This document shows positions 25,098-56,630 of a stretch of DNA of 64,000 nt, piece after piece; position 1 is the stretch's first letter; each line of letters opens with the position of its first letter. The notes below the pieces were generated by a model. That model was not told where the DNA came from and ran no database searches. It worked only from the letters and a program-made list of their open reading frames with translations. Origin of the DNA: Planctomycetota bacterium (GTDB lineage Bacteria; Planctomycetota; PLA2); contig JAPUHK010000024.1 in the NCBI GenBank assembly GCA_027297745.1, forward strand, positions 994-64,993. The letters run 5' to 3'. The position numbers and the translations under genes were made by a program.

Positions 25098-27056
25098 ATG
25101 ATGCACGCCCTTCCCTCCTACGCCGTCTGGATCGTGCTGGCGCCCGCGCTGGCCGCGCTCTTGCAGAACTTTTGCGGCAAGCTGCTGCCGCGCAAGGGCG
25201 ACTGGCTCGTCGTGGGCGGCATGGGCGTCTCGCTCGCGCTGTCGCTGATGGTGCTGATGGAGTGGAGGGCCCTCGATCCGGGCCACTACTTCGAAGGCAG
25301 CGTCACCTGGTTCCAGTTGACGGGCGGCATCTCGTTCTCCGTCGGCATCGTGATCGACGGCCTGACCGCGGCCATGCTGATCGTGGTCACGCTGGTCTCG
25401 CTGCTCGTGTTCGTGTTCTCGATGGGCTACATGAAGGGCGACCGGCACTACGACCGCTTCTTCTTCTGGCTCTCGTTCTTCAGCACCTCGATGCTGATCC
25501 TGGTGGTGGCCGACAACCTGCTGCTGCTGTTCGTCGGCTGGGAGCTGGTGGGGCTTTGCAGCTACAAGCTGATCGGCTTCTGGGGCCAGGACCTGGCCAA
25601 CGCGGAGGCGGCCAAGAAGGCCTTCATCACCACCCGCGTGGGCGACGTCGGGATGCTGATCGGCATCCTCATGATGTACAAGGCCTGCGGCACGCTCTCG
25701 TTGCAGGGCGTGTTCGCGCAGGTGCAGGCCGGAGCGATCCAGGGCAGCGCGCTGACCTGGGCCGGCATCGCGCTGTTCCTCGGCGCGGTCGGCAAGTCGG
25801 CGCAGTTCCCGCTGCACGTCTGGCTGCCGGACGCCATGGCGGGCCCGACGCCTGTCAGCGCGCTGATCCACGCGGCCACGATGGTGGCGGCGGGGGTCTA
25901 CTTCGCGGCGCGCATGTTCCCGATCTTCACGCCGCAGGCGCTGTACTTCATCGCCTGGACGGGCGGTGTGACCGCGCTGCTGGCGGCGCTCATCGCGGTC
26001 ACGCAGACGGACATAAAGAAGGTGCTGGCCTACTCCACGATCAGCCAGCTCGGCTACATGATCCTCGGCGTCGGCGTGGGCGCTCCGTGGGCGGCCATGT
26101 TCCACCTGTGCACGCACGCCATGTTCAAGGCCTGCCTGTTCCTCGGCTCCGGCTCCGTGATCCACGCCATGCATCACACCCAGGAGCTCGAGGACATGGG
26201 CGGCCTGCGCAAGAAGATGCCGGTCACCTTCTGGACCTTCGTGGTCAGCACGCTCGCGCTGGCCGGCATCCCCTTGTTCAGCGGCTTCATGTCGAAGGAC
26301 GCAATCCTGTTCGAGGCGTTGCACAGCGGGCAGACGGCGCTGTTCGCGATCGGGCTCGGTGCCGCCTTCCTGACCGCTTTCTACATGACGCGCATGCTGT
26401 GGCTGTGCTTCATGGGCGAGCCGCGCAACCGGGAGAAGCACGACCACGCGCACGAGTCGCCCGTGAGCATGACGCTGCCGCTGGTCGTGCTGGCACTGCT
26501 CTCGATCGGGATCTTCTGGGGCGGGTTCGCGGACGACTATTTCACGACGCCCGCCTACCACGCGGACTACCCGCAGACGGCGGAGGTGGCGGCGGCTTAT
26601 GCGCCAGCGGGAGAGGTGCGCGCTCATCCACACCACCCGGTGTGGTTCCTGCTGCTGGCGAGCGCGATGGGTCTCGGCGGCATCGCGCTGGGCATCGCGC
26701 TGTTCCGCTCCGGCAAGCGGGACCAGGACACGGTGCTCTTGCCCGAAGGGCTGCACCGCACGGCGAAGAACAAGTACTACCTCGACGACCTCTACCTGGG
26801 CTGGGGCTTCGTCGGGCTCGGTGACACGCTCAGCCGTTGGAGCCGCGTGGCCGACGACCGCGCGGTCGACGGCGCGGTCAACGGTGTCGGCAGCGCGGGC
26901 GTGACCGTCGCCGAGATCAGCGGGGACGCGGACCAGGTCATCGTGGACGGCGCTGTCAACCTGGTCGCGGACGCCACGGACGCGGTAGGCGGCGTGGCCA
27001 GTAGCGCGCAGACGGGGCGCATTCGGAACTACCTGGGAGCAGCACGACGGTCGTGA
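25098..27056 (+). CDS. nuoL: NADH-quinone oxidoreductase subunit L
   Basis: FVGWELVGLCSY...GKSAQFPLHVWLPDAMAGPTPVSALIHAATMVAAG. Confidence 0.95.
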   Translation: MMHALPSYAVWIVLAPALAALLQNFCGKLLPRKGDWLVVGGMGVSLALSLMVLMEWRALDPGHYFEGSVTWFQLTGGISFSVGIVIDGLTAAMLIVVTLVSLLVFVFSMGYMKGDRHYDRFFFWLSFFSTSMLILVVADNLLLLFVGWELVGLCSYKLIGFWGQDLANAEAAKKAFITTRVGDVGMLIGILMMYKACGTLSLQGVFAQVQAGAIQGSALTWAGIALFLGAVGKSAQFPLHVWLPDAMAGPTPVSALIHAATMVAAGVYFAARMFPIFTPQALYFIAWTGGVTALLAALIAVTQTDIKKVLAYSTISQLGYMILGVGVGAPWAAMFHLCTHAMFKACLFLGSGSVIHAMHHTQELEDMGGLRKKMPVTFWTFVVSTLALAGIPLFSGFMSKDAILFEALHSGQTALFAIGLGAAFLTAFYMTRMLWLCFMGEPRNREKHDHAHESPVSMTLPLVVLALLSIGIFWGGFADDYFTTPAYHADYPQTAEVAAAYAPAGEVRAHPHHPVWFLLLASAMGLGGIALGIALFRSGKRDQDTVLLPEGLHRTAKNKYYLDDLYLGWGFVGLGDTLSRWSRVADDRAVDGAVNGVGSAGVTVAEISGDADQVIVDGAVNLVADATDAVGGVASSAQTGRIRNYLGAARRS

Positions 27057-42979: not shown

Positions 42980-43164
42980 CTGTTACCCGATGTAACGGCC
43001 GCAACACGTTTAGCAGAACGGACTTGGGGATCGAGGCTTGCGGCATGCGTGCCGCATCGCTGACAACGCTACGAACAAGGATCTGCGGCAGCCGTGCCGC
43101 ATGCTGGTAGTCGTAATCTCTACGTGTGAAGGACATTGCGACTGTTAGAAGCGGTAACTGTTAC
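42976..43164. promoter_or_regulatory. Palindrome-rich, AT-richer spacer (operator or structured-RNA candidates)
   Basis: GTAACTGTTAC at 42976-42986 and 43154-43164. TGCGGCA-n4-TGCCGCA at 43039-43056 and 43084-43101. Confidence 0.5.
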
Positions 43165-43167
43165 TTC

Positions 43168-43473
43168 ATGGACGGTGACTTCATGGACGGTGCTCAGGCC
43201 AGGCTCGCCGCGTTGCGCGTGATGCAGGACGTGCTGGACGGGAGCGTACGGCGGGTGGGGGAGCTGCGCCGGGCGTGGCCGCCGGCCGAAGCTGATTTCC
43301 TGCTGAAGCGGGCGCGCCAGGAGGCGGAGCACTACCTGGTCACGGGCGGGGAGCTCGAGCGCCGTTTCGTGGCCATGCTGCGCTCGTTTCTGGAACGCGG
43401 CGGCACGGCCGGGGAGCTCGAGCAGGCCTACGATGAGGTGATCCGAGTCCACAACGAGGAGACGGGTGACTAG
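43168..43473 (+). CDS. Small helical hypothetical protein
   Basis: MDGDFMDGAQARLAALRVMQDVL.... GTG 43126 is an alternative start. The stop overlaps the GTG start of the DUF488 gene. Confidence 0.55.
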   Translation: MDGDFMDGAQARLAALRVMQDVLDGSVRRVGELRRAWPPAEADFLLKRARQEAEHYLVTGGELERRFVAMLRSFLERGGTAGELEQAYDEVIRVHNEETGD

Positions 43474-44011
43474 CCCGAAGCTCTTCACCGTCGGCCACAG
43501 CAACCGCACGGCGCCGGATCTCGTGCGGCTGCTGCTTGCGCACGGCATCCGCACCGTGTGCGACGTGCGCGCCTTTCCGAAGTCGAGCCGCTGGCCGCAT
43601 TTCGACCGCGAGGCGCTGGAGCCTGTGTTGCAGGACGCCGGGATCGAGTACGTCTGGCTCGGCGAGCCGCTCGGCGGCTACCGCAAGGGCAAACGCACGG
43701 ACTCGGTGCACACGGCGCTGGACAGCTTCCGCAGCTACGCGGATCACATGGAGAGCGACGAGTTCCGTGCAGGGATCGCGCGCTTGCTAGCGCTCGCGTG
43801 CGAGACGCCGACGGCCTACCTGTGCGCCGAGAAGGACTGGCGCCGCTGCCACCGGCGCCTGATCTCAGACCACCTCGTGGAGCTCGAGGGCGCCGCAGTG
43901 GTCCACCTGCTGGCAGCGGACGCCTGTGAGGCCCACGCGCTGGACCCGCGTGCCCGCGTCGTGGCGGGGCGCCTGGTGTACGACCGGGGCGCGCAGGCCG
44001 AGCTCTTCTGA
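43466..44011 (+). CDS. DUF488-family protein
   Basis: LFTVGHSNRT...VCDVRAFPKSSRWPHF...LCAEKDWRRCHRRLISDHL. Confidence 0.85.
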   Translation: MTSPKLFTVGHSNRTAPDLVRLLLAHGIRTVCDVRAFPKSSRWPHFDREALEPVLQDAGIEYVWLGEPLGGYRKGKRTDSVHTALDSFRSYADHMESDEFRAGIARLLALACETPTAYLCAEKDWRRCHRRLISDHLVELEGAAVVHLLAADACEAHALDPRARVVAGRLVYDRGAQAELF

Positions 44012-44051
44012 CGCCGCGCTGTCCCGGGCTTCTGTTAGGCTTTTGTTAGGT

Positions 44052-45077
44052 ATGCTGACAAGGGTCGAGAACCCGCCGAACCCGTGGCACTCCCAGCACC
44101 AGGAGTGGGTTGGACCGCCGCCGCCTGCACGCCTGCAGGTCTACGAAGAGAGGGCCAGGTCGATCGTGGTTGAGAACCGGAGCCCAGACGTGGGCTTCGG
44201 TTTCTCCATCAACCCCTACAGGGGGTGTTTTCACGGGTGCTCCTACTGCTACGCGAGGCCCACGCACCAGTACCTCGACTTCGGCGCGGGCACGGACTTC
44301 GAGCGCAAGATCGTCGTGAAGGTCAACGCGCCGGAGCTTCTGCGCGAGCGCTTTCTCAAGCCTTCGTGGCGGGGCGATCTGATCGCACTTTCGGGCAACA
44401 CCGATTGCTATCAGCCGCTCGAAGCCACCTACGGGATCACCCGCCGCATCCTCGAGGTCTGCGCGGAGTTCCGCAATCCAGTGGCCGTGATCACGAAGGC
44501 GGCGCTGATCCGGCGCGACGTCGACGTGCTTTGCGAGCTGGCGCGCCGGGCGCAGCTGTCGGTCTCTTTCAGCATCCCGTTCGTCGACGAATGGATGGCG
44601 CGGCAGATCGAGCCTTACGCGCCGTCCCCGGACATGCGCTTTGGGGCCATGCGCGTGCTGGCCGAGGCCGGGATTCCGGTCGGCGTGGCCGTGGCTCCGC
44701 TGATCCCCGGACTGAACGACAGCCAGGTGACCGCGATCCTGGAGCGGGCGCGCGATTGCGGCGCGCGCAGCGCGTTCAAGATCCTGCTGCGCCTCCCCGC
44801 GGAGGTGAAGGACGTGTTCATCCCCCGCCTGCGGCGCTCCTACCCGGGGCGTTCGAAGCGTGTGCTGAACGCGCTCAAGGAGATGCGCGGCGGCGCCCTG
44901 TACACCGCGCAGTTCGGCAGCCGCATGCGCGGCCGCGGACACCGCTGGAAGGCGCTCGAGGACCTGTTCGAGGTCACCTGCCGACGGCTCGGGCTCAACG
45001 CGCGCCGCACGGAGGAAGAGCCGACGACCTTCCGCCGGCCGTGCACGCAGCTCTCGTTGCTCGACCCTACGCCGTGA
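44052..45077 (+). CDS. Radical SAM protein (SplB/PA0069-like, COG1533-type)
   Basis: INPYRGCFHGCSYCYARP contains the CxxxCxxC motif. Internal ATG of ORF 43926-45077. Confidence 0.85.
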   Translation: MLTRVENPPNPWHSQHQEWVGPPPPARLQVYEERARSIVVENRSPDVGFGFSINPYRGCFHGCSYCYARPTHQYLDFGAGTDFERKIVVKVNAPELLRERFLKPSWRGDLIALSGNTDCYQPLEATYGITRRILEVCAEFRNPVAVITKAALIRRDVDVLCELARRAQLSVSFSIPFVDEWMARQIEPYAPSPDMRFGAMRVLAEAGIPVGVAVAPLIPGLNDSQVTAILERARDCGARSAFKILLRLPAEVKDVFIPRLRRSYPGRSKRVLNALKEMRGGALYTAQFGSRMRGRGHRWKALEDLFEVTCRRLGLNARRTEEEPTTFRRPCTQLSLLDPTP

Positions 45078-45635
45078 AGATGCCCGGCGGGGCGTCCAGG
45101 TGTCCGCCGCTCGCGCCCGTGGCGACCACCTCCGCCGACAACTGGCCGCAGCCCATACCCTCCCGCTTGCCGGCGCTGTAGCGGGTCTTGACGGGGCAGC
45201 GCAACGCGCGCAGCCGTGTCGTGAACCGCTTCACCTCGTCCCACGACGGGGGCCGGAAGGCGCTGTCCGTGTCGTTGTAGGGGATCACGTTGAGGATGTA
45301 GCGCGAAGGCGCAGCCGAACGCGCAGCCCGCCTGCGACGACAGGCAGAGCGTGACCGCCCGCGCGTTCCGGATCAGGACGGTCTCGACGATCTCGCCGGG
45401 AGCGGTGCGGAAGAGCAGCTTGCGCGTGCCGTCCTCGGCCCGGCGTACGGCAACGGTCTCGAGCAGCGGTCCGAAACGCGCGCGGTCCCGCAGCCGCAGC
45501 CCGCGGTCGAGCCCGTCCCAATCTAGCGCCCCTCTTGTGCACGGCGAGCGCGATGCGGCGTGCGACTTCGTCGGCCACGCCGAGCGTCTCCGCGAGTGCG
45601 GGGATGGGGACGTCACGCAGGTGCGGCCTGTGCAC
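45067..45635 (-). pseudogene. rlmN: Decayed rlmN-like (23S rRNA/tRNA m2A radical SAM methyltransferase) remnant
   Basis: The pieces sit in three different frames. They read ...IPALAETLGVADEVARRIALAVHKRGA / LDWDGL...EDGTRKLLFRTAPGEIVETVLIRNARAVTLCLSSQAGCAFGCAF / YILNVIPYNDTDSAFRPPSWDEVKRFTTRLRALRCPVKTRYSAGKREGMGCGQLSAEV. The whole radical-SAM core between them is missing. Confidence 0.7.
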
Positions 45636-45673
45636 GGGGGCACGAGCCTACCAGTCTCATCCCGCCTTGGACG

Positions 45674-46318
45674 CTACGCGCGCACGGTGCGCACCGCGCG
45701 CTTCGCTCCCCACGGCTGCGGCACCCAGCCCGAAGCCGTGATCCAGCAGAACGTGAGCGCAGCGGAGATGCCTACCGTGTAGACGGCCGCCGTGGCCAGG
45801 AGGCGGCTCTGCAGCGCCGCAGCCAACAGGCCGACGGTGCTGAGCAGCGTCACCGCGTACATGGCGAGCATGACCAGCGACGCGAAGATGCCGCCGAGCA
45901 CCGCCGTCACGCAGCGCCTCTGCTGAGGGGAGAAGTCGAGCGGGCCCGTGAGCGTGATGGTCACGACGCAGGCAAGCGCCAGGCCCATCAGCAGAGCCGC
46001 GTAGCCGATCAGGTGCGGCACGGCGAAGCCGGCCAGCAGCGTCACGCCCGCCATGCGCCAGGCCACCCAGCCGACGCGGGCACAGCTCTCCGCCAGTTGG
46101 GGCCGGGGACAGACGCCTGAGCTCAGGGGCCTGAGCGGCATGTGCTGCGCGATGCCGTTGATCAGCTCGCGGAAGCAGGCCGCCTCGATGCGGATGCGGG
46201 AAAGGCCCTGCTCCCGCAAGGCGCGCCGTGTCTCCAGCAGGTCCTCCCGGAACTGGGGCCGGATATCGCCCGGCACCGCGCACGAGAGGAGCTTCACCCA
46301 TACCTGTGCGTGCGACAT
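45674..46318 (-). CDS. Membrane protein: cytoplasmic helical N-domain plus about 4 TM helices
   Basis: The ATG gives MSHAQVWVKLLSCAVPGDIRPQFREDLLETRRALREQG.... Hydrophobic helices follow. Confidence 0.6.
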   Translation of the reverse strand: MSHAQVWVKLLSCAVPGDIRPQFREDLLETRRALREQGLSRIRIEAACFRELINGIAQHMPLRPLSSGVCPRPQLAESCARVGWVAWRMAGVTLLAGFAVPHLIGYAALLMGLALACVVTITLTGPLDFSPQQRRCVTAVLGGIFASLVMLAMYAVTLLSTVGLLAAALQSRLLATAAVYTVGISAALTFCWITASGWVPQPWGAKRAVRTVRA

Positions 46319-46528
46319 TGGTGGTTGAACCTCCGTGTTGCACCTTGGCACGAAACCGTGCAGGGGCAAACCGGTTTACAGGGATGAAGCCTCTCTGTGG
46401 CCCGGATGTCCTCCAACGACACAGCTCCGGCCCGATTCGATACAGAAGGGACCTGGACCGATACACCGGAGCGGGACCCGGGCCTGGTCTACAATCACAG
46501 CGCCCGAAAACCCCGATCGGAGCCCGCC

Positions 46529-48169
46529 ATGTACCAAAACCGCATCCGCCCCCGGCACGGCGTAGGCCTCACGCTGCTGTGCCTCGCGCTCCTCGCCGCG
46601 CCCGTCTGGGCAACCTGTGGCGGCGGCGGCGGCGGCGGCCGCGGCGGCGCCGGGCAGGCCTACAAGACGAACTGGATGACCAGCTGGAAAAAGACGCTGT
46701 CGGACGCGGAGCTCAAGGAACAGGGCGTCCTGTTGTACTTCCAGCCCCGCAGCTCGTCGGAGCACCGCTTCTTCAAGACGAAGTGGCCCAACGACGTCTC
46801 CAAGGAGCGTTTCTTCTACAAGGTCCGCGGCACGAGCGAAGAGGCCGAGAAGATGCGCGCACAATACCGCGTGGAAGGGAAGAAGCACCACGTCTTCATC
46901 TGCGACTGGCACGGCAACGTGTTCAAGTCCTTCGCGACCACCGACCGCGCCAAGTTCCGGAGCGGCGCCCTGAAGGGTCCCCTGTACGGCATACAGCGCT
47001 CGGTCAAGCGCTTGCGCAAGAAGATCGCGCAGAACACCGCGAAGGCTGAAAAGGCCCTCGAAAGGAAATCGTACCCCACGGCCATCAAGGCGCTGAAGTC
47101 CGCGCAGGAGTACACGGGCTATCCCGAGGTCGAGCAGTCCAAGAAGCTGTGGCAGCAGTTGGAGAAGGAGGGCCTGAGCCAGTTGGAAGCCGCCCTGCAA
47201 CTCGAGAATCCCGAGCGCCGCAAGAAGCTCAACGCGCTCAAGCGGACCTTCAAGCGGACGGGCGTCGAGAAGGCGGCGGCCAAGGCGCTGGCCAAGGAGA
47301 ACGGCAAGCGCGAAGCCTCCGTGCCGGCGGAGCGCGCGCATGACGACGCCACGATGAAGGCGCCGTCGCTGGCGGAGCGCATCTGCGCCGAGCTGTTTGT
47401 GGACGACGGCTCCACCACGATCGCGGAGCTCGTCGACGCGGCCGTCCAGGAGGGCCTGCGGCACGAGAACGCGGCTCGCTACGAGGACGCGCTGCGCGCC
47501 TACGAGCGTGCCGTGCGGCTCGATCCCAAGGACCCCGTCCCGCTCGTCTACCTCGGTGAGCTGCACCGGCATCACATGGGGCGCTGGGATGACGCCGAGC
47601 GGGCCTTCCGCCGCGTGCTGGAGCTCGACGGTCAGGACCACGCGGTCGCCGTCGCGCTGCACGGCATCGGCAAGATGACCATCTGGCGCGGCGACAACGA
47701 AGCCGGCCTGAAGCTGCTAGCGGGCTCCATCGAGCGTTCGCCGACGGCGTTGTGCTACCGCAACCTGGCCGTCTACTGGAACACCGAGGGCGACGCCGGG
47801 AAGGCCTTCGCCTACGCCACCAAGGCCTACGAGCTCGAGCCGCGTGACTCCTACAACCAGGTCTTCTACTCCGTGTACCTGCTCCTGAACGGGCGTGGGG
47901 AGCAGGCGCAGCGCCTCATGGCCGCCGCCGAGTTCGATCCGTCCATGTCGTACAACTACGCCTGCTATCACGCTGTGCGCGGGGATCGCGACCAGGTGTT
48001 GGCGTACCTGAAGCGCCACTTCTACGAGTACGAGAAGTACGCCGCGGTACGTTCCTTCGAGATGGCGGAGGCGCGCATGGACAGCTTCTTCGCGCGCTGG
48101 TTGGAGGATCCGGAGTTCAAGCAGGTCACGAAGCTTGCCGGCAAGACGCCCTGGCTGCGCGAGGGCTAG
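46529..48169 (+). CDS. Secreted (possibly lipo-) protein with TPR repeats
   Basis: MYQNRIRPRHGVGLTLLCLALLAAPVWATCGGGGGGG. The C-terminal half is TPR-like (YEDALRAYERAVRLDPKDPVPLVYLGELH...). Confidence 0.8.
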   Translation: MYQNRIRPRHGVGLTLLCLALLAAPVWATCGGGGGGGRGGAGQAYKTNWMTSWKKTLSDAELKEQGVLLYFQPRSSSEHRFFKTKWPNDVSKERFFYKVRGTSEEAEKMRAQYRVEGKKHHVFICDWHGNVFKSFATTDRAKFRSGALKGPLYGIQRSVKRLRKKIAQNTAKAEKALERKSYPTAIKALKSAQEYTGYPEVEQSKKLWQQLEKEGLSQLEAALQLENPERRKKLNALKRTFKRTGVEKAAAKALAKENGKREASVPAERAHDDATMKAPSLAERICAELFVDDGSTTIAELVDAAVQEGLRHENAARYEDALRAYERAVRLDPKDPVPLVYLGELHRHHMGRWDDAERAFRRVLELDGQDHAVAVALHGIGKMTIWRGDNEAGLKLLAGSIERSPTALCYRNLAVYWNTEGDAGKAFAYATKAYELEPRDSYNQVFYSVYLLLNGRGEQAQRLMAAAEFDPSMSYNYACYHAVRGDRDQVLAYLKRHFYEYEKYAAVRSFEMAEARMDSFFARWLEDPEFKQVTKLAGKTPWLREG

Positions 48170-48185
48170 CGTTTTCAGATAGACC

Positions 48186-48725
48186 CTAAGCGCCCGGCCG
48201 TGCGCGCATCGACGCGTTGAACGCCTTGCTGCCGCCGGGCGGGATGCTGAGGAAGCGCCAAGCGGGTCCCGCGAACGTGCGCGCGATGAGCAGGATCTGT
48301 CCCGTGTGGTAGCCGTAGTGGCCGACCTGGCGCACGAGCGCGCGCGAGACGGTCACCGGCTGCGTGCGGATCGTCACCGTGGCCTCCAGGTCGGCCTCGC
48401 GCAGGCCGCGCAGCGTCTCGAACAGCGTCTCCCAGGCCTCCTCCCAACGCCCCATGAGCTCGTCGCGGCCGGCGAGGTCGTTGATGAACTCCTGCTCCCG
48501 GTTGCGCCAGGGCTTCTCGCCGTCGCTGGTGAGGAAGTCGGTCCAGCGCGAGCGCAGATTACCGGCCATGTGCTTCATGATCACGGCGATGGAGTTCAGG
48601 CCGCCTGCGGGCGCCTCCTGCATGTGCTGCCAGCTGATCTGGCCGATCGCGTCTTCGGCGATCTTCTTGTAGTAGCGGAACTCGGCTTCCACGGCGTCGA
48701 GGAGCTTGTCTTTCAACGGGTTCAC
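48186..48725 (-). CDS. DinB/DUF1572-family protein
   Basis: GTG start. The His-containing helices IMKHMAGNL and GHYGYHTGQILLIAR fit the four-helix-bundle family pattern. Confidence 0.75.
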   Translation of the reverse strand: MNPLKDKLLDAVEAEFRYYKKIAEDAIGQISWQHMQEAPAGGLNSIAVIMKHMAGNLRSRWTDFLTSDGEKPWRNREQEFINDLAGRDELMGRWEEAWETLFETLRGLREADLEATVTIRTQPVTVSRALVRQVGHYGYHTGQILLIARTFAGPAWRFLSIPPGGSKAFNASMRARPGA

Positions 48726-49066
48726 GGACCCACCTTATCCTCCGCGGCGGCGGCGTGGCTCAACACAGGGTCTTGGTCTTGGGTACCTTGGCCCGCACGA
48801 GGTCGTCGAGCCGCGCGCGCTGCTCGCCGACGCCCGCACCGGTACTGTTGCGGCGTAAGGAACAGCAGTACGCCCTCAGGCGCGATGACTGCCTTGCAGA
48901 ATGCGTTCCAGCCCATCTCCGAGCTGGCCATGCCGACCGTCGCGGCCTTCAGGCCGTCTTCGCGCATGACCATTTCGACTTCGTGCCGCGCGTCGCCCTT
49001 GTGGGCGCGGACGAACTCCTCCGTGGTCCACTGGTAGCGGATGTGGATGGGCGCCTCGTCGTTCAT
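48722..49066 (-). CDS. Hypothetical protein, 3' end probably frameshifted
   Basis: The N-terminal 75 aa look coding (MNDEAPIHIRYQWTTEEFVRAH...). The last ~38 aa are Arg/Ala-rich with poor GC3, while another frame reads GEQRARLDDLVRAKVPKTKTLC* with high GC3. Confidence 0.5.
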   Translation of the reverse strand: MNDEAPIHIRYQWTTEEFVRAHKGDARHEVEMVMREDGLKAATVGMASSEMGWNAFCKAVIAPEGVLLFLTPQQYRCGRRRAARAARRPRAGQGTQDQDPVLSHAAAAEDKVGP

Positions 49067-53566: not shown

Positions 53567-56395
53567 CTAGGGTCCGCTGACGTAGTTGCCGGCGTTGCCC
53601 CCGATGTTGCCGTTGGCGTCCAGCCAGGAGTCCAGGTGGATTCCGATGGCCGGGTCGGGGTTGGTCAGCCTGTCGATCAGCGTGCCCGTCAGCGGTCCCG
53701 CCATGGTCGGGTTGGGCGTGCCCGTGCGCAAGCTCGGGCCCGTCCCCGGCATGAGCGGGTGGTTGCTGGAGCTCGTCGGAGTTCCGTCCGCGAGCACGAT
53801 GCTGTCCAGGTTGTAAGCGATGCGGGTCATGAACGTGGCCGGGTCGAAGGCCGTCGCCGGCGCGACCGTCACGTTCTGGATGCCCGGATCGGCGAAGATG
53901 CCGTACCGGTTCGGGTTCTGGTCCAGCGGGTTGATAGCGCCGCCGTTCCCGTCGAACAGGAACAGCCCCGTACCCAGGCCGGCCACCATGTGCACCCAGA
54001 AGGGTGAGTTCATCTGGTTGCCGGAGTTCTGGCCGAAGTGCTGCCTCAGCTCCGTGAAGTCCAGTTGATCGTAGCTTCCGCTCGCCATGGCGGAACGGAA
54101 GGCCACGTACTCGGTCCCGTACTGCTGCATACCCGCCTCGGTGATGTGGCACGCGACGCAGTAGCGCGGGCCCTCCATGGTGGAGGTGACGCGGCCGCGG
54201 ATCGAGTGGGCCATCATCGCGTTGTGACCGAGCGAGGGCGTTTGGTTGGGGTCGCTCCCCTGCGCCTTGCGGTCGGAGAACGTGAAGATGCTGGACAGCT
54301 GGTTGTTGCGGTCCTCCCACTGGAAGAACATCTTCGTGTTCGAGCTGACCTGCGTGATCTCGTTGTGCGGGCTGATGCCCAGCGCCATGAACACGGGCGA
54401 CTGGTACACGAACTCGGCCTCGTCCTCCTCGAAGACGATGCGCTCGCCCGTGATGTTGCTGAAGTCATTCGAGTACTCGCCCTTCAGGTGACAGCCCATG
54501 CACGTGTTCGTCCACGAAGCGTGGCAGGACGCGCAGTCCAGGTCGTCCGTGTGGCTGAAGTTGCTCGGGACCGCGTTGTTCGCCTGGATCGGACCTATGC
54601 CGGTCGTGCCCAGGCCGTCGTCACGGCCCATCGCATAGGAGGCCTTGTCGCTGTACAGGGGCGCCCCGCTGAACGGGTGCGTCCGGCCCGTGTTCACGGT
54701 GACGTCCAGCGTCTGCGGGACGAAGTGACGCGCGCCCGTGAGACGGCTGTACAGGTAGAAGTGGCCGTCGCTCTCCAGCACGACGTGCGCCAGGGTGTTC
54801 CCCTCGCCGTCCACCGCCAGCTCCTGGGTGGTGTTGTCGTAGGCCGTGCCTTGAGCCGTCTGGGCATAGGCCGCGACGCCGCCGTGGCAGCTCTCGCAAC
54901 GGATCCCCACGGCGTGCTCCATGCGGCTCACGATCTTGCCGCCGCTCGGGGAGGTCACGTCGCCGCCGTGCAGGTCGAAGCTGCCGTGGCAGTCGATGCA
55001 GCCCATGCCGGCCTCGTAGTGCACGTCGGGCGGGGTGTCGTCGCGGCCGTCGTCGTCGTAGTCCTCCTCGAGGAGGTACTGGTTGCGGTTGCGCCCGTTG
55101 AACTCGCGGTTCCCCAACCGGATCAGGACGCCGTTCTGGTCGTAGATCGGCAGGTTGGGGTCGAACAGGCGCGTGTCGCCGGAGGTCGTCCGGTAACTTC
55201 CCGGCTGCGACGGGTACTGGAAGCCGCGCCGCACGTCCTGGTTCTGGTCGAGGCGGATGCCCCAGTACTGCATGACCGTGCGGTTCGAGCCCTGGTGGCA
55301 GCCGGCGCAGGCGTAGTCGTCGATGCCCTGGACGAACTCGCCGCTGGACAACGTCTTGGCCACGGTGCGGATCAGGTGGCGGGCGACGTGCGGCAGCTCG
55401 GGCTCGTCGATGTCGTCCGGATCGTACGGCTCCATGCGGTTGAGGTTCGGATCGTTGCTGGTGGAGCGCCCGCTCAGGCTGTGGCGCATGTGGCACGCCG
55501 AGCAACCCGAGCCGCGGTAGTCGCCGTAGCGGTTGTTCGCGCCGGCGCTGCCGAGGTGGCAGTCTCCGCAGGTGTAGGCGATCTGCTCGTGATAGAGCTT
55601 CGCCAGCGGGGAGTCCGTGATCGCCTGGCCCGTCAGCGGATCGATGTCGTCATCGAGCTCGGCGGCGTCGAAATCCGGGTTGTTGCGGATGTCGTTCGGG
55701 CCGTTGTTGAAGCGCCGGCTGTAGACCGGGAACTCCATCAGGTTTTGCACCGAACCGAAGGTCGTCGGGTCGAAGCTCTGGTCCGTGACGGCGCGAATGC
55801 CCAGGTCGGCGGCCGTGTCCTCGTAGCCCGTGTACCCCATCTGGTTGTCCACGCCGGCCGCGAACATCGCGCCGGAGAAGATGCCCATCTCGGTGGCGAT
55901 CGGGCTCTGGGACACGATCTGCGCGTGGTTCGCGTGGCACTGGCCGCAGCTGCGGTTCTGCGTGACCACGCGGATGTCGGCCGGGCTGACGAACTGCAGC
56001 CAGTCCAGCGCGCTGTAGGTCTGCCCGTTCGCGGCCGTGTAGTCCGGGAACTTGTCCGGACCGGCCAGGGTCAGCCGGTTGAAGTAGGCGTGGTCGTTGT
56101 TGATCCAGTTCTGCCGGTCGCCGATCTCGGGCGGCGCCGGGACGTGGCTCGAGGCCCTGTCCGTCCCGTTCGGGTTTCCGCCGTGGCAGGTGGTGCACAG
56201 CAGGTTGCTGGCGCCCGTGAAGGGGTGTGGGTTCTCGAGGCCCGGGCCCCCGTAGTTGTTGTCCACGGAGCCGTTGTGGCAGGTCATGCACGACTGGGCC
56301 GACGCTGTGATCGCGCGGCCGCTGGAGTCGACGCAGCCCGTCACGACGAACGCCAGTAGGAAGATGACTGAGAGGAGACCTCTGTGATGAGTCAT
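53567..56395 (-). CDS. Large multiheme c-type cytochrome lipoprotein (11 CXXCH)
   Basis: MTHHRGLLSVIFLLAFVVTGC carries a lipobox. The motifs are CMTCH, CTTCH, CGQCH, CGDCH, CSACH, CAGCH, CIDCH, CESCH, CASCH, CMGCH and CVACH. Confidence 0.9.
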   Translation of the reverse strand: MTHHRGLLSVIFLLAFVVTGCVDSSGRAITASAQSCMTCHNGSVDNNYGGPGLENPHPFTGASNLLCTTCHGGNPNGTDRASSHVPAPPEIGDRQNWINNDHAYFNRLTLAGPDKFPDYTAANGQTYSALDWLQFVSPADIRVVTQNRSCGQCHANHAQIVSQSPIATEMGIFSGAMFAAGVDNQMGYTGYEDTAADLGIRAVTDQSFDPTTFGSVQNLMEFPVYSRRFNNGPNDIRNNPDFDAAELDDDIDPLTGQAITDSPLAKLYHEQIAYTCGDCHLGSAGANNRYGDYRGSGCSACHMRHSLSGRSTSNDPNLNRMEPYDPDDIDEPELPHVARHLIRTVAKTLSSGEFVQGIDDYACAGCHQGSNRTVMQYWGIRLDQNQDVRRGFQYPSQPGSYRTTSGDTRLFDPNLPIYDQNGVLIRLGNREFNGRNRNQYLLEEDYDDDGRDDTPPDVHYEAGMGCIDCHGSFDLHGGDVTSPSGGKIVSRMEHAVGIRCESCHGGVAAYAQTAQGTAYDNTTQELAVDGEGNTLAHVVLESDGHFYLYSRLTGARHFVPQTLDVTVNTGRTHPFSGAPLYSDKASYAMGRDDGLGTTGIGPIQANNAVPSNFSHTDDLDCASCHASWTNTCMGCHLKGEYSNDFSNITGERIVFEEDEAEFVYQSPVFMALGISPHNEITQVSSNTKMFFQWEDRNNQLSSIFTFSDRKAQGSDPNQTPSLGHNAMMAHSIRGRVTSTMEGPRYCVACHITEAGMQQYGTEYVAFRSAMASGSYDQLDFTELRQHFGQNSGNQMNSPFWVHMVAGLGTGLFLFDGNGGAINPLDQNPNRYGIFADPGIQNVTVAPATAFDPATFMTRIAYNLDSIVLADGTPTSSSNHPLMPGTGPSLRTGTPNPTMAGPLTGTLIDRLTNPDPAIGIHLDSWLDANGNIGGNAGNYVSGP

Positions 56396-56419
56396 TTCTG
56401 ATCTCACTTTGCCCGACCC

Positions 56420-56440
56420 CTCCGGCGGCGACCGCCGGAG
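56420..56440 (-). promoter_or_regulatory. GC hairpin in the leader of the 11-heme cytochrome gene
   Basis: CTCCGGCGG-cga-CCGCCGGAG, a perfect 9-bp stem, lies about 25 nt upstream of ATG 56395. Confidence 0.4.
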
Positions 56441-56630
56441 TCCGAGCGAGAGGGCGTGAGAGCCGGCCCCACGAGGGAGAGACCAACACGCGGTAGTCCG
56501 ATGCTAGGAACGGGTATCACTTGGAGGGGGGCCTGAGAGACGCAACTTGAGACTTCAGCCGGAGCGTCTCGTTGTGAGGCGGCTCGATCGGAAACGCCGG
56601 CGGTCTGCCCCACAAACCGTGCGGGGCCGC

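Follow-up and report, generated by a model that had tools for sequence, protein, structure and literature searches.

The minus strand of the window (the whole stretch of DNA analyzed here, 64,000 nucleotides from an uncultured planctomycete) carries RlmN-family sequence between 45635 and 45067 that is spread over three successive reading frames. The locus raises two questions: whether this is a dead gene, a gene that still works in some unusual way or an error of assembly, and, if the gene is dead, what kind of enzyme the organism has lost. We conclude that the locus is very probably a pseudogene of an RlmN-like RNA methyltransferase, its core lost in a single 491-nt deletion and the rest decaying neutrally since.

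The three pieces that a preliminary description had reported were reproduced by tblastn alignment to intact relatives (Table 1). Piece 1 begins at a native GTG start at 45635 (the same start is called in the same-species contig L001) and encodes the N-terminal ~37 residues, VHRPHLRDVPIPALAETLGVADEVARRIALAVHKRGA. Piece 2, corresponding to residues ~38-112, reads LDWDGLDRG...TLCLSSQAGCAFGCAF and ends at 45305, its aligned segment (45532-45305) terminating in SSQAGCAFGCAF; the N-terminal pieces match intact relatives at E 4e-16. After a stray base at 45304, piece 3 reads RYILNVIPYNDTDSAFRPPSWDEVKRFTTRLRALRCPVKTRYSAGKREGMGCGQLSAEVVATGASGGHLDAPPGIFTA; the stretch RYILNVIPYND...CPVKTRYSAGKREGMGCGQLSAEVVATGASGGHLDAPPGIFTA carries the Cys355 equivalent within GCGQL, and the aligned segment (45300-45073, against residues 234-309 of the relative P0002) is 75% identical at E 1e-34. 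When the pieces are rejoined into one 190-aa sequence, the NCBIfam RlmN models match it in two blocks (profile positions 10-113/338 and 273-334/348; E 3e-21, for NF011040, to 5e-18), so both halves of the remnant are significantly similar to members of the RlmN/Cfr family, while Pfam finds no domain in it, Radical_SAM (PF04055) included. The GC3 of pieces 1, 2 and 3 in their assigned frames (0.89, 0.91 and 0.96) agrees with that of the real genes in the window (0.81-0.93).

Table 1. Features of the remnant, its surroundings and the same-species contigs (positions are those of the window).
Feature	Position or source	Strand	Details
Piece 1	45528..45635	-	frame -3; tblastn vs P0010 aa 1-41
Piece 2	45305..45532	-	frame -1; tblastn vs P0010 aa 41-121 and P0002 aa 2-69
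Piece 3	45067..45303	-	frame -2; native C-terminus and TAG stop
Frameshift 1	45526..45529	-	(GC)3 run to (GC)2, 2-bp loss; separates the frames of pieces 1 and 2
Deletion junction GCC TTC / G / CGC TAC	45298..45310	-	491 nt absent; frame changes again
Overlap of 3' ends, remnant and PA0069-family gene	45067..45077		11 nt; stop codons read directly
Convergent PA0069-family radical-SAM gene	44052-45077	+	intact; 392 bits on NF033668 (cut-off 360)
Predicted membrane protein, 231 aa	45674-46369	-	directly upstream of the remnant, co-directional, 38-nt gap
Spurious ORF, 267 aa	44840-45643	-	
Spurious ORF, 116 aa	45285-45635	-	
Spurious ORF, 73 aa	45067-45288	-	
L001	Logan ERR10503120		same deletion junction; 2-bp loss absent; own 7-bp deletion
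L103	Logan SRR18078966		same deletion junction; 2-bp loss present
L104	NCBI MAG GCA_041931445.1		same deletion junction; contig stops short of the 2-bp site

The first change of frame, expected near 45524-45535, was located to a 2-bp loss in a short GC run, where GGGGCGCGCTAG in L001 corresponds to GGGGCGCTAG in the window; putting the GC back gives ...GALDWD..., which matches the intact relatives. The second, a jump to the C-terminal YILNVIPYN...GMGCGQL segment in a third frame, could be read directly at 45307-45298. In intact relatives exactly 163 residues (16/16) lie between the Phe that is retained here (GC..F) and the Arg-Tyr of RYILNV, and the deletion, in register with all 16, therefore measures 163 codons plus 2 nt, or 491 nt; the earlier figure of about 200 missing catalytic-barrel residues was an overestimate. 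The general anatomy, in which a dead remnant combines a single small frameshift with the loss of its radical-SAM core, was nevertheless described correctly, and it is the three frames and the absence of 163 core codons that mark the sequence as a pseudogene.

The lost segment encodes the entire radical-SAM barrel together with the third cysteine of the cluster. Piece 2 retains the Cys118 equivalent and the first two cysteines of CxxxCxxC (C-AFG-C-AF is left), and the codon of the third falls at the deletion junction. Both mechanistic cysteines are still encoded, the resolving one (Cys118 in E. coli numbering) in TLCLSS of piece 2 and the methyl carrier of the CGQL motif (E. coli Cys355) in GMGCGQL of piece 3, but the frames differ, so they never occur in one polypeptide. 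The complete CxxxCxxC motif and the PF04055 barrel, which define an RlmN/Cfr methylsynthase, are present in the intact relatives and absent from the remnant. As predicted from this sequence, no product of the locus is able to bind a [4Fe-4S] cluster or SAM, and the locus would therefore have no enzymatic function.

The position of the breakpoints suggests how the deletion came about. The left breakpoint corresponds in the relatives to TT[CTGCGC], spanning the Phe-Cys-Ala codons (17/17), and the right one to G[CTGCGC]TAC (10/13); the deletion probably arose between these two copies of the CTGCGC hexamer. The fit is imperfect and the mechanism is not fully explained by it: a simple microhomology model predicts the product TTCTGCGCTAC, which is one T longer than the observed junction TTCGCGCTAC.

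The stops of the remnant (TAG, 45069-45067) and of the convergent radical-SAM gene (TGA, 45075-45077) agree with the overlap noted previously between the two, and the remnant shares the terminal ...APPG[IV]FTG motif of its intact relatives, which indicates that the native stop has been retained.

Three further contigs of the same species (L001, L103 and L104), 98.8-99.8% identical to the window, extend over the locus; the same-species contigs identified by exact-protein matches are 1-10 kb long. The deletion junction is identical in all four separate metagenome assemblies, which differ from one another by SNPs. An assembly or sequencing artefact, in which a collapse or indel errors mimic the truncation of an intact gene, might be considered in a window as GC-rich as this one (68% G+C), the more so as the 2-bp lesion lies within a GC dinucleotide run, a typical context of such errors. 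Yet the 491-nt junction was recovered from different read sets by different assemblers, a 6-bp repeat is unable to collapse a k-mer assembly, and the 2-bp lesion recurs in L103, a contig that aligns to the window across 5.6 kb free of indels. Nor is there any near-identical intact protein: in a search of 5.8 billion proteins, no intact one exceeds 82% identity to the remnant. Because the junction is the same in four separate assemblies, the collapse envisaged as a test of the preliminary description can in practice be dismissed, and we regard an artefact of any kind as scarcely credible.

With the lesions taken as real, their distribution among the assemblies gives an order of events: the junction is common to all and the small indels vary (a 7-bp deletion at 45131-45137 occurs in L001 only), which makes the large deletion the older event and the small indels later ones. 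Judged on contigs from four metagenome assemblies, the deletion is fixed in the species as sampled, though a rare intact allele might persist in the populations. Substitutions have also accumulated in the remnant, with 7 segregating SNP sites in its 569 bp vs 4 in 3883 bp of intact neighboring genes, a density ~12-fold higher (odds ratio 12, Fisher p = 1e-4), although the counts are small and the assemblies related; between L001 and the window, all differences (8/8) fall inside the remnant (p = 0.003). This SNP density and the two strain-specific frameshifting indels are the signs of relaxed constraint expected of a pseudogene.

The same SNP density is seen at one other place in the window, a stretch of ~370 bp at 43102-43473, upstream of a DUF488 gene, which holds a cluster of five out of the eleven SNP sites that do not belong to the remnant. 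An ORF here (43117-43473, plus strand, 118 aa; called as 96 and 115 aa in L103 and L104) has no Pfam match, and the stretch may be non-coding or weakly constrained.

The history that best accommodates these observations is as follows. An ancestor of this species carried an RlmN/Cfr-family radical-SAM methyltransferase of ~368 aa, from a small and divergent clade confined to part of the Planctomycetota, and one 491-nt deletion took the third cluster cysteine and the SAM-binding barrel and left the C-terminus out of frame, a step that the sequence shows directly. The deletion then became fixed, the dead sequence drifting without constraint as strains gained separate lesions: slippage by 2 bp in the GC repeat in the lineage of the window, the 7-bp deletion in another lineage and, throughout, a raised density of substitutions.

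Could what is left still serve some purpose, as a stand-alone protein with an N-terminal RNA-binding domain or through programmed frameshifting and read-through? L001 keeps a single frame through the first 112 residues, where a 187-aa ORF is called, but the tail of that ORF is out-of-frame sequence, and in the window and L103 the 2-bp loss breaks it after ~37 residues. The SNP density is like that of unconstrained DNA, the missing catalytic core cannot be restored by any change of frame, and Rfam, promoter, terminator and repeat scans of 43000-47500 suggest no other feature, showing neither a promoter-like site nor a terminator or Rfam element for such a product. We consider a functional remnant highly improbable, and the short ORFs called at the locus (73, 116, 187 and 267 aa) are spurious products of a decaying pseudogene. 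The 267-aa ORF extends antisense into the PA0069-family gene, and the gene calls of L103 and L104, both public assemblies, include the 73-aa ORF. Annotation should record a pseudogene here rather than 'hypothetical proteins' of these lengths.

The identity of the lost enzyme has to be read from its intact relatives. The intact proteins nearest to the remnant group in a tight clade, whose members are 57-70% identical to a 368-aa reference (L002:9827-10930); piece 3, the C-terminus, reaches 82% identity with its nearest relative. A scan of 185,579 species representatives found the clade in 15 Planctomycetota MAG species, and it was also found in 18 metagenome contigs; ~35 intact single-frame members exist in other genomes and metagenomes. 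The metagenome scan yielded no intact relative closer than 78% identical over the C-terminus and no further copy of the deletion, the clade matches all being intact; the closest fragments (P0003, P0004 and P0006) derive from unrelated metagenomes. Clade members keep the hallmarks TLCxSSQAGCxxxCxFC and GCGQL, i.e., the equivalents of Cys118, CxxxCxxC and Cys355, and have a C-terminal tail of their own, SAExVA..GH..APPGxFTG. NCBI names one member no more specifically than 'radical SAM protein.' The sole split member, L022:3-916 (on a contig of JGI 3300041087, also at NCBI), changes between two frames near residues 185-192, where gene callers place two overlapping genes; the split reflects a sequencing error or else another frameshift that arose independently in the clade.

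Ten full-length intact members scored 209-243 bits on TIGR00048 (cut-off 290), 142-174 bits on NF008396 (cut-off 633) and 225-278 bits on PRK14470 (NF011040; cut-off 441), and on the Cfr models NF000424, TIGR04432 and NF011024 the intact relatives reached 143-177 bits (cut-offs 468-550). Canonical RlmNs from the same search scored 342-364 bits on TIGR00048. The rejoined remnant itself scored 65 bits in the RlmN equivalog comparison (TIGR00048 / NF008396) and 40-41 bits on the Cfr models, below all of their cut-offs. As intact members fall under all RlmN and Cfr cut-offs, the clade is placed by its sequence within the RlmN/Cfr family yet outside every curated RlmN or Cfr equivalog. The preliminary description had taken the parent to be the housekeeping rlmN, an identification that these scores do not bear out, and the choice it posed, that either a second copy exists or the m2A2503 modification has been lost, does not follow from the locus.

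The genomic context of the intact genes differs from that of the remnant. At six planctomycete loci (L002, which is the same locus as L005 and was examined over L002:1-20933, and L006, L007, L008, L010 and L015) an AAA/TPR protein is encoded downstream of the intact clade gene, followed in 5 of the six by a THUMP-domain methyltransferase, and 4 of the six have genes for a ferredoxin and for Dus, a tRNA dihydrouridine synthase, upstream, which suggests an RNA-modification neighborhood. None of these neighbors (AAA/TPR, THUMP, ferredoxin or Dus) is present in the window, and the flanks of the remnant, the 231-aa membrane protein and the PA0069-family gene, lie beside none of the ~35 intact clade genes. 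No mobile-element genes occur within ~10 kb of the remnant.

Several other features of the window were recorded. The membrane protein matches nothing in Pfam or NCBIfam, and its gene is free of SNPs across the assemblies. A DUF1572/DinB-family protein (48186-48734, minus strand) is encoded near the remnant, and a ~978-aa multihaem cytochrome with c3/c7/MtrC-like domains is encoded at 53567-56503 (minus strand). At the 3' end of a nuoL-like ORF (25098-27056) the window is short of 19 nt against the MAG contig L003 at 27041-27050, where several adjacent bases also differ; the NuoL-like product is 652 aa in the window and 662 aa in L003, and the adjacent NuoM is identical.

What the cell lost depends on whether the dead gene was a housekeeping or an accessory one. 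We think it fairly likely that an accessory paralogue was lost and that the genome has its housekeeping rlmN at another place; the accessory reading is drawn from the sub-threshold scores and narrow distribution of the clade. The other possibility is that the clade is a fast-evolving planctomycete orthologue of rlmN, and that the dead gene was the only RlmN-family enzyme of this genome. Several results agree with it: TIGR00048 and PRK14470 beat the Cfr models by 40-120 bits for the clade, the best solved relative of the clade is RlmN (6fz6, E 6.5e-52, vs 3e-32 for Cfr), the intact members retain all of the cysteine equivalents, and tblastn detects no other RlmN homologue within the 64-kb window. 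No co-occurrence of a clade gene with a canonical RlmN was seen, the examined clade loci including none with two family members; matches in the protein search with the canonical-RlmN profile were dominated by Binatia and Deltaproteobacteria. Against it, intact clade members miss every RlmN equivalog cut-off, the clade occurs in 15 species representatives only, and 64 kb is a small part of a planctomycete genome. Planctomycete sequences have been assigned to the Cfr branch, which means that family members other than RlmN do exist in the phylum, and RlmN proper is present in most bacterial taxa (Kaminska et al., 2010; PMC2836569). Taken together, we find it unlikely that the sole RlmN-family enzyme was lost here.

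Were that nevertheless the case, this would be a free-living species with a fixed natural knockout, with ribosomes lacking m2A2503 in 23S rRNA and tRNAs lacking m2A37, a modification that almost all other bacteria retain. A cell could tolerate the loss of its only family member, since E. coli rlmN deletion mutants are viable. Most likely, however, the loss removed an accessory RNA-modification enzyme, a status assigned here from the parent clade. The remnant itself is no evidence either way on the presence or absence of rlmN in the organism. The clade represents an uncharacterized candidate RNA-modification enzyme, whose dispensability is demonstrated by this species.

The decay of the gene resembles that of ordinary bacterial pseudogenes, in which a large inactivating deletion is followed by slippage indels, a higher density of substitutions and spurious short ORFs; nothing sets this remnant apart from them, and it has no mobile element, repeat or RNA feature in association. 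RlmN is a dual-specificity C2-methyltransferase of 23S rRNA A2503 and tRNA A37, and the remnant aligns both to its N-terminal region and to its C-terminal CGQL segment (TIGR00048; PDB 3rf9, 5hr6 and 6fz6); the intact clade relatives likewise have the TLCxSSQxGCxxxCxFC and GCGQL motifs. Unlike RlmN, the clade members P0002 and P0010 have no match to PF21016, the RlmN N-terminal domain, and the intact clade stays below the TIGR00048 cut-off, with a tail of its own and a different gene context; the gene in the window is, in addition, dead, its core deleted. Cfr, the C8-methyltransferase of 23S rRNA A2503 that confers antibiotic resistance, has the same fold and chemistry as the RlmN-like family, but the clade always scores lower on Cfr than on RlmN-type models, and the Cfr structure (PDB 9p0p) matches it more weakly than RlmN 6fz6. 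The nearest likeness is to NF011040 (PRK14470, 'ribosomal RNA large subunit methyltransferase N'), a lineage-specific RlmN-like model, which is the top model for the N-terminal part of the remnant (76 bits, profile 10-113/338) and the best-scoring one for most intact clade members; the clade falls far under its 441-bit cut-off, so that it is a relative of this group rather than a member of it.
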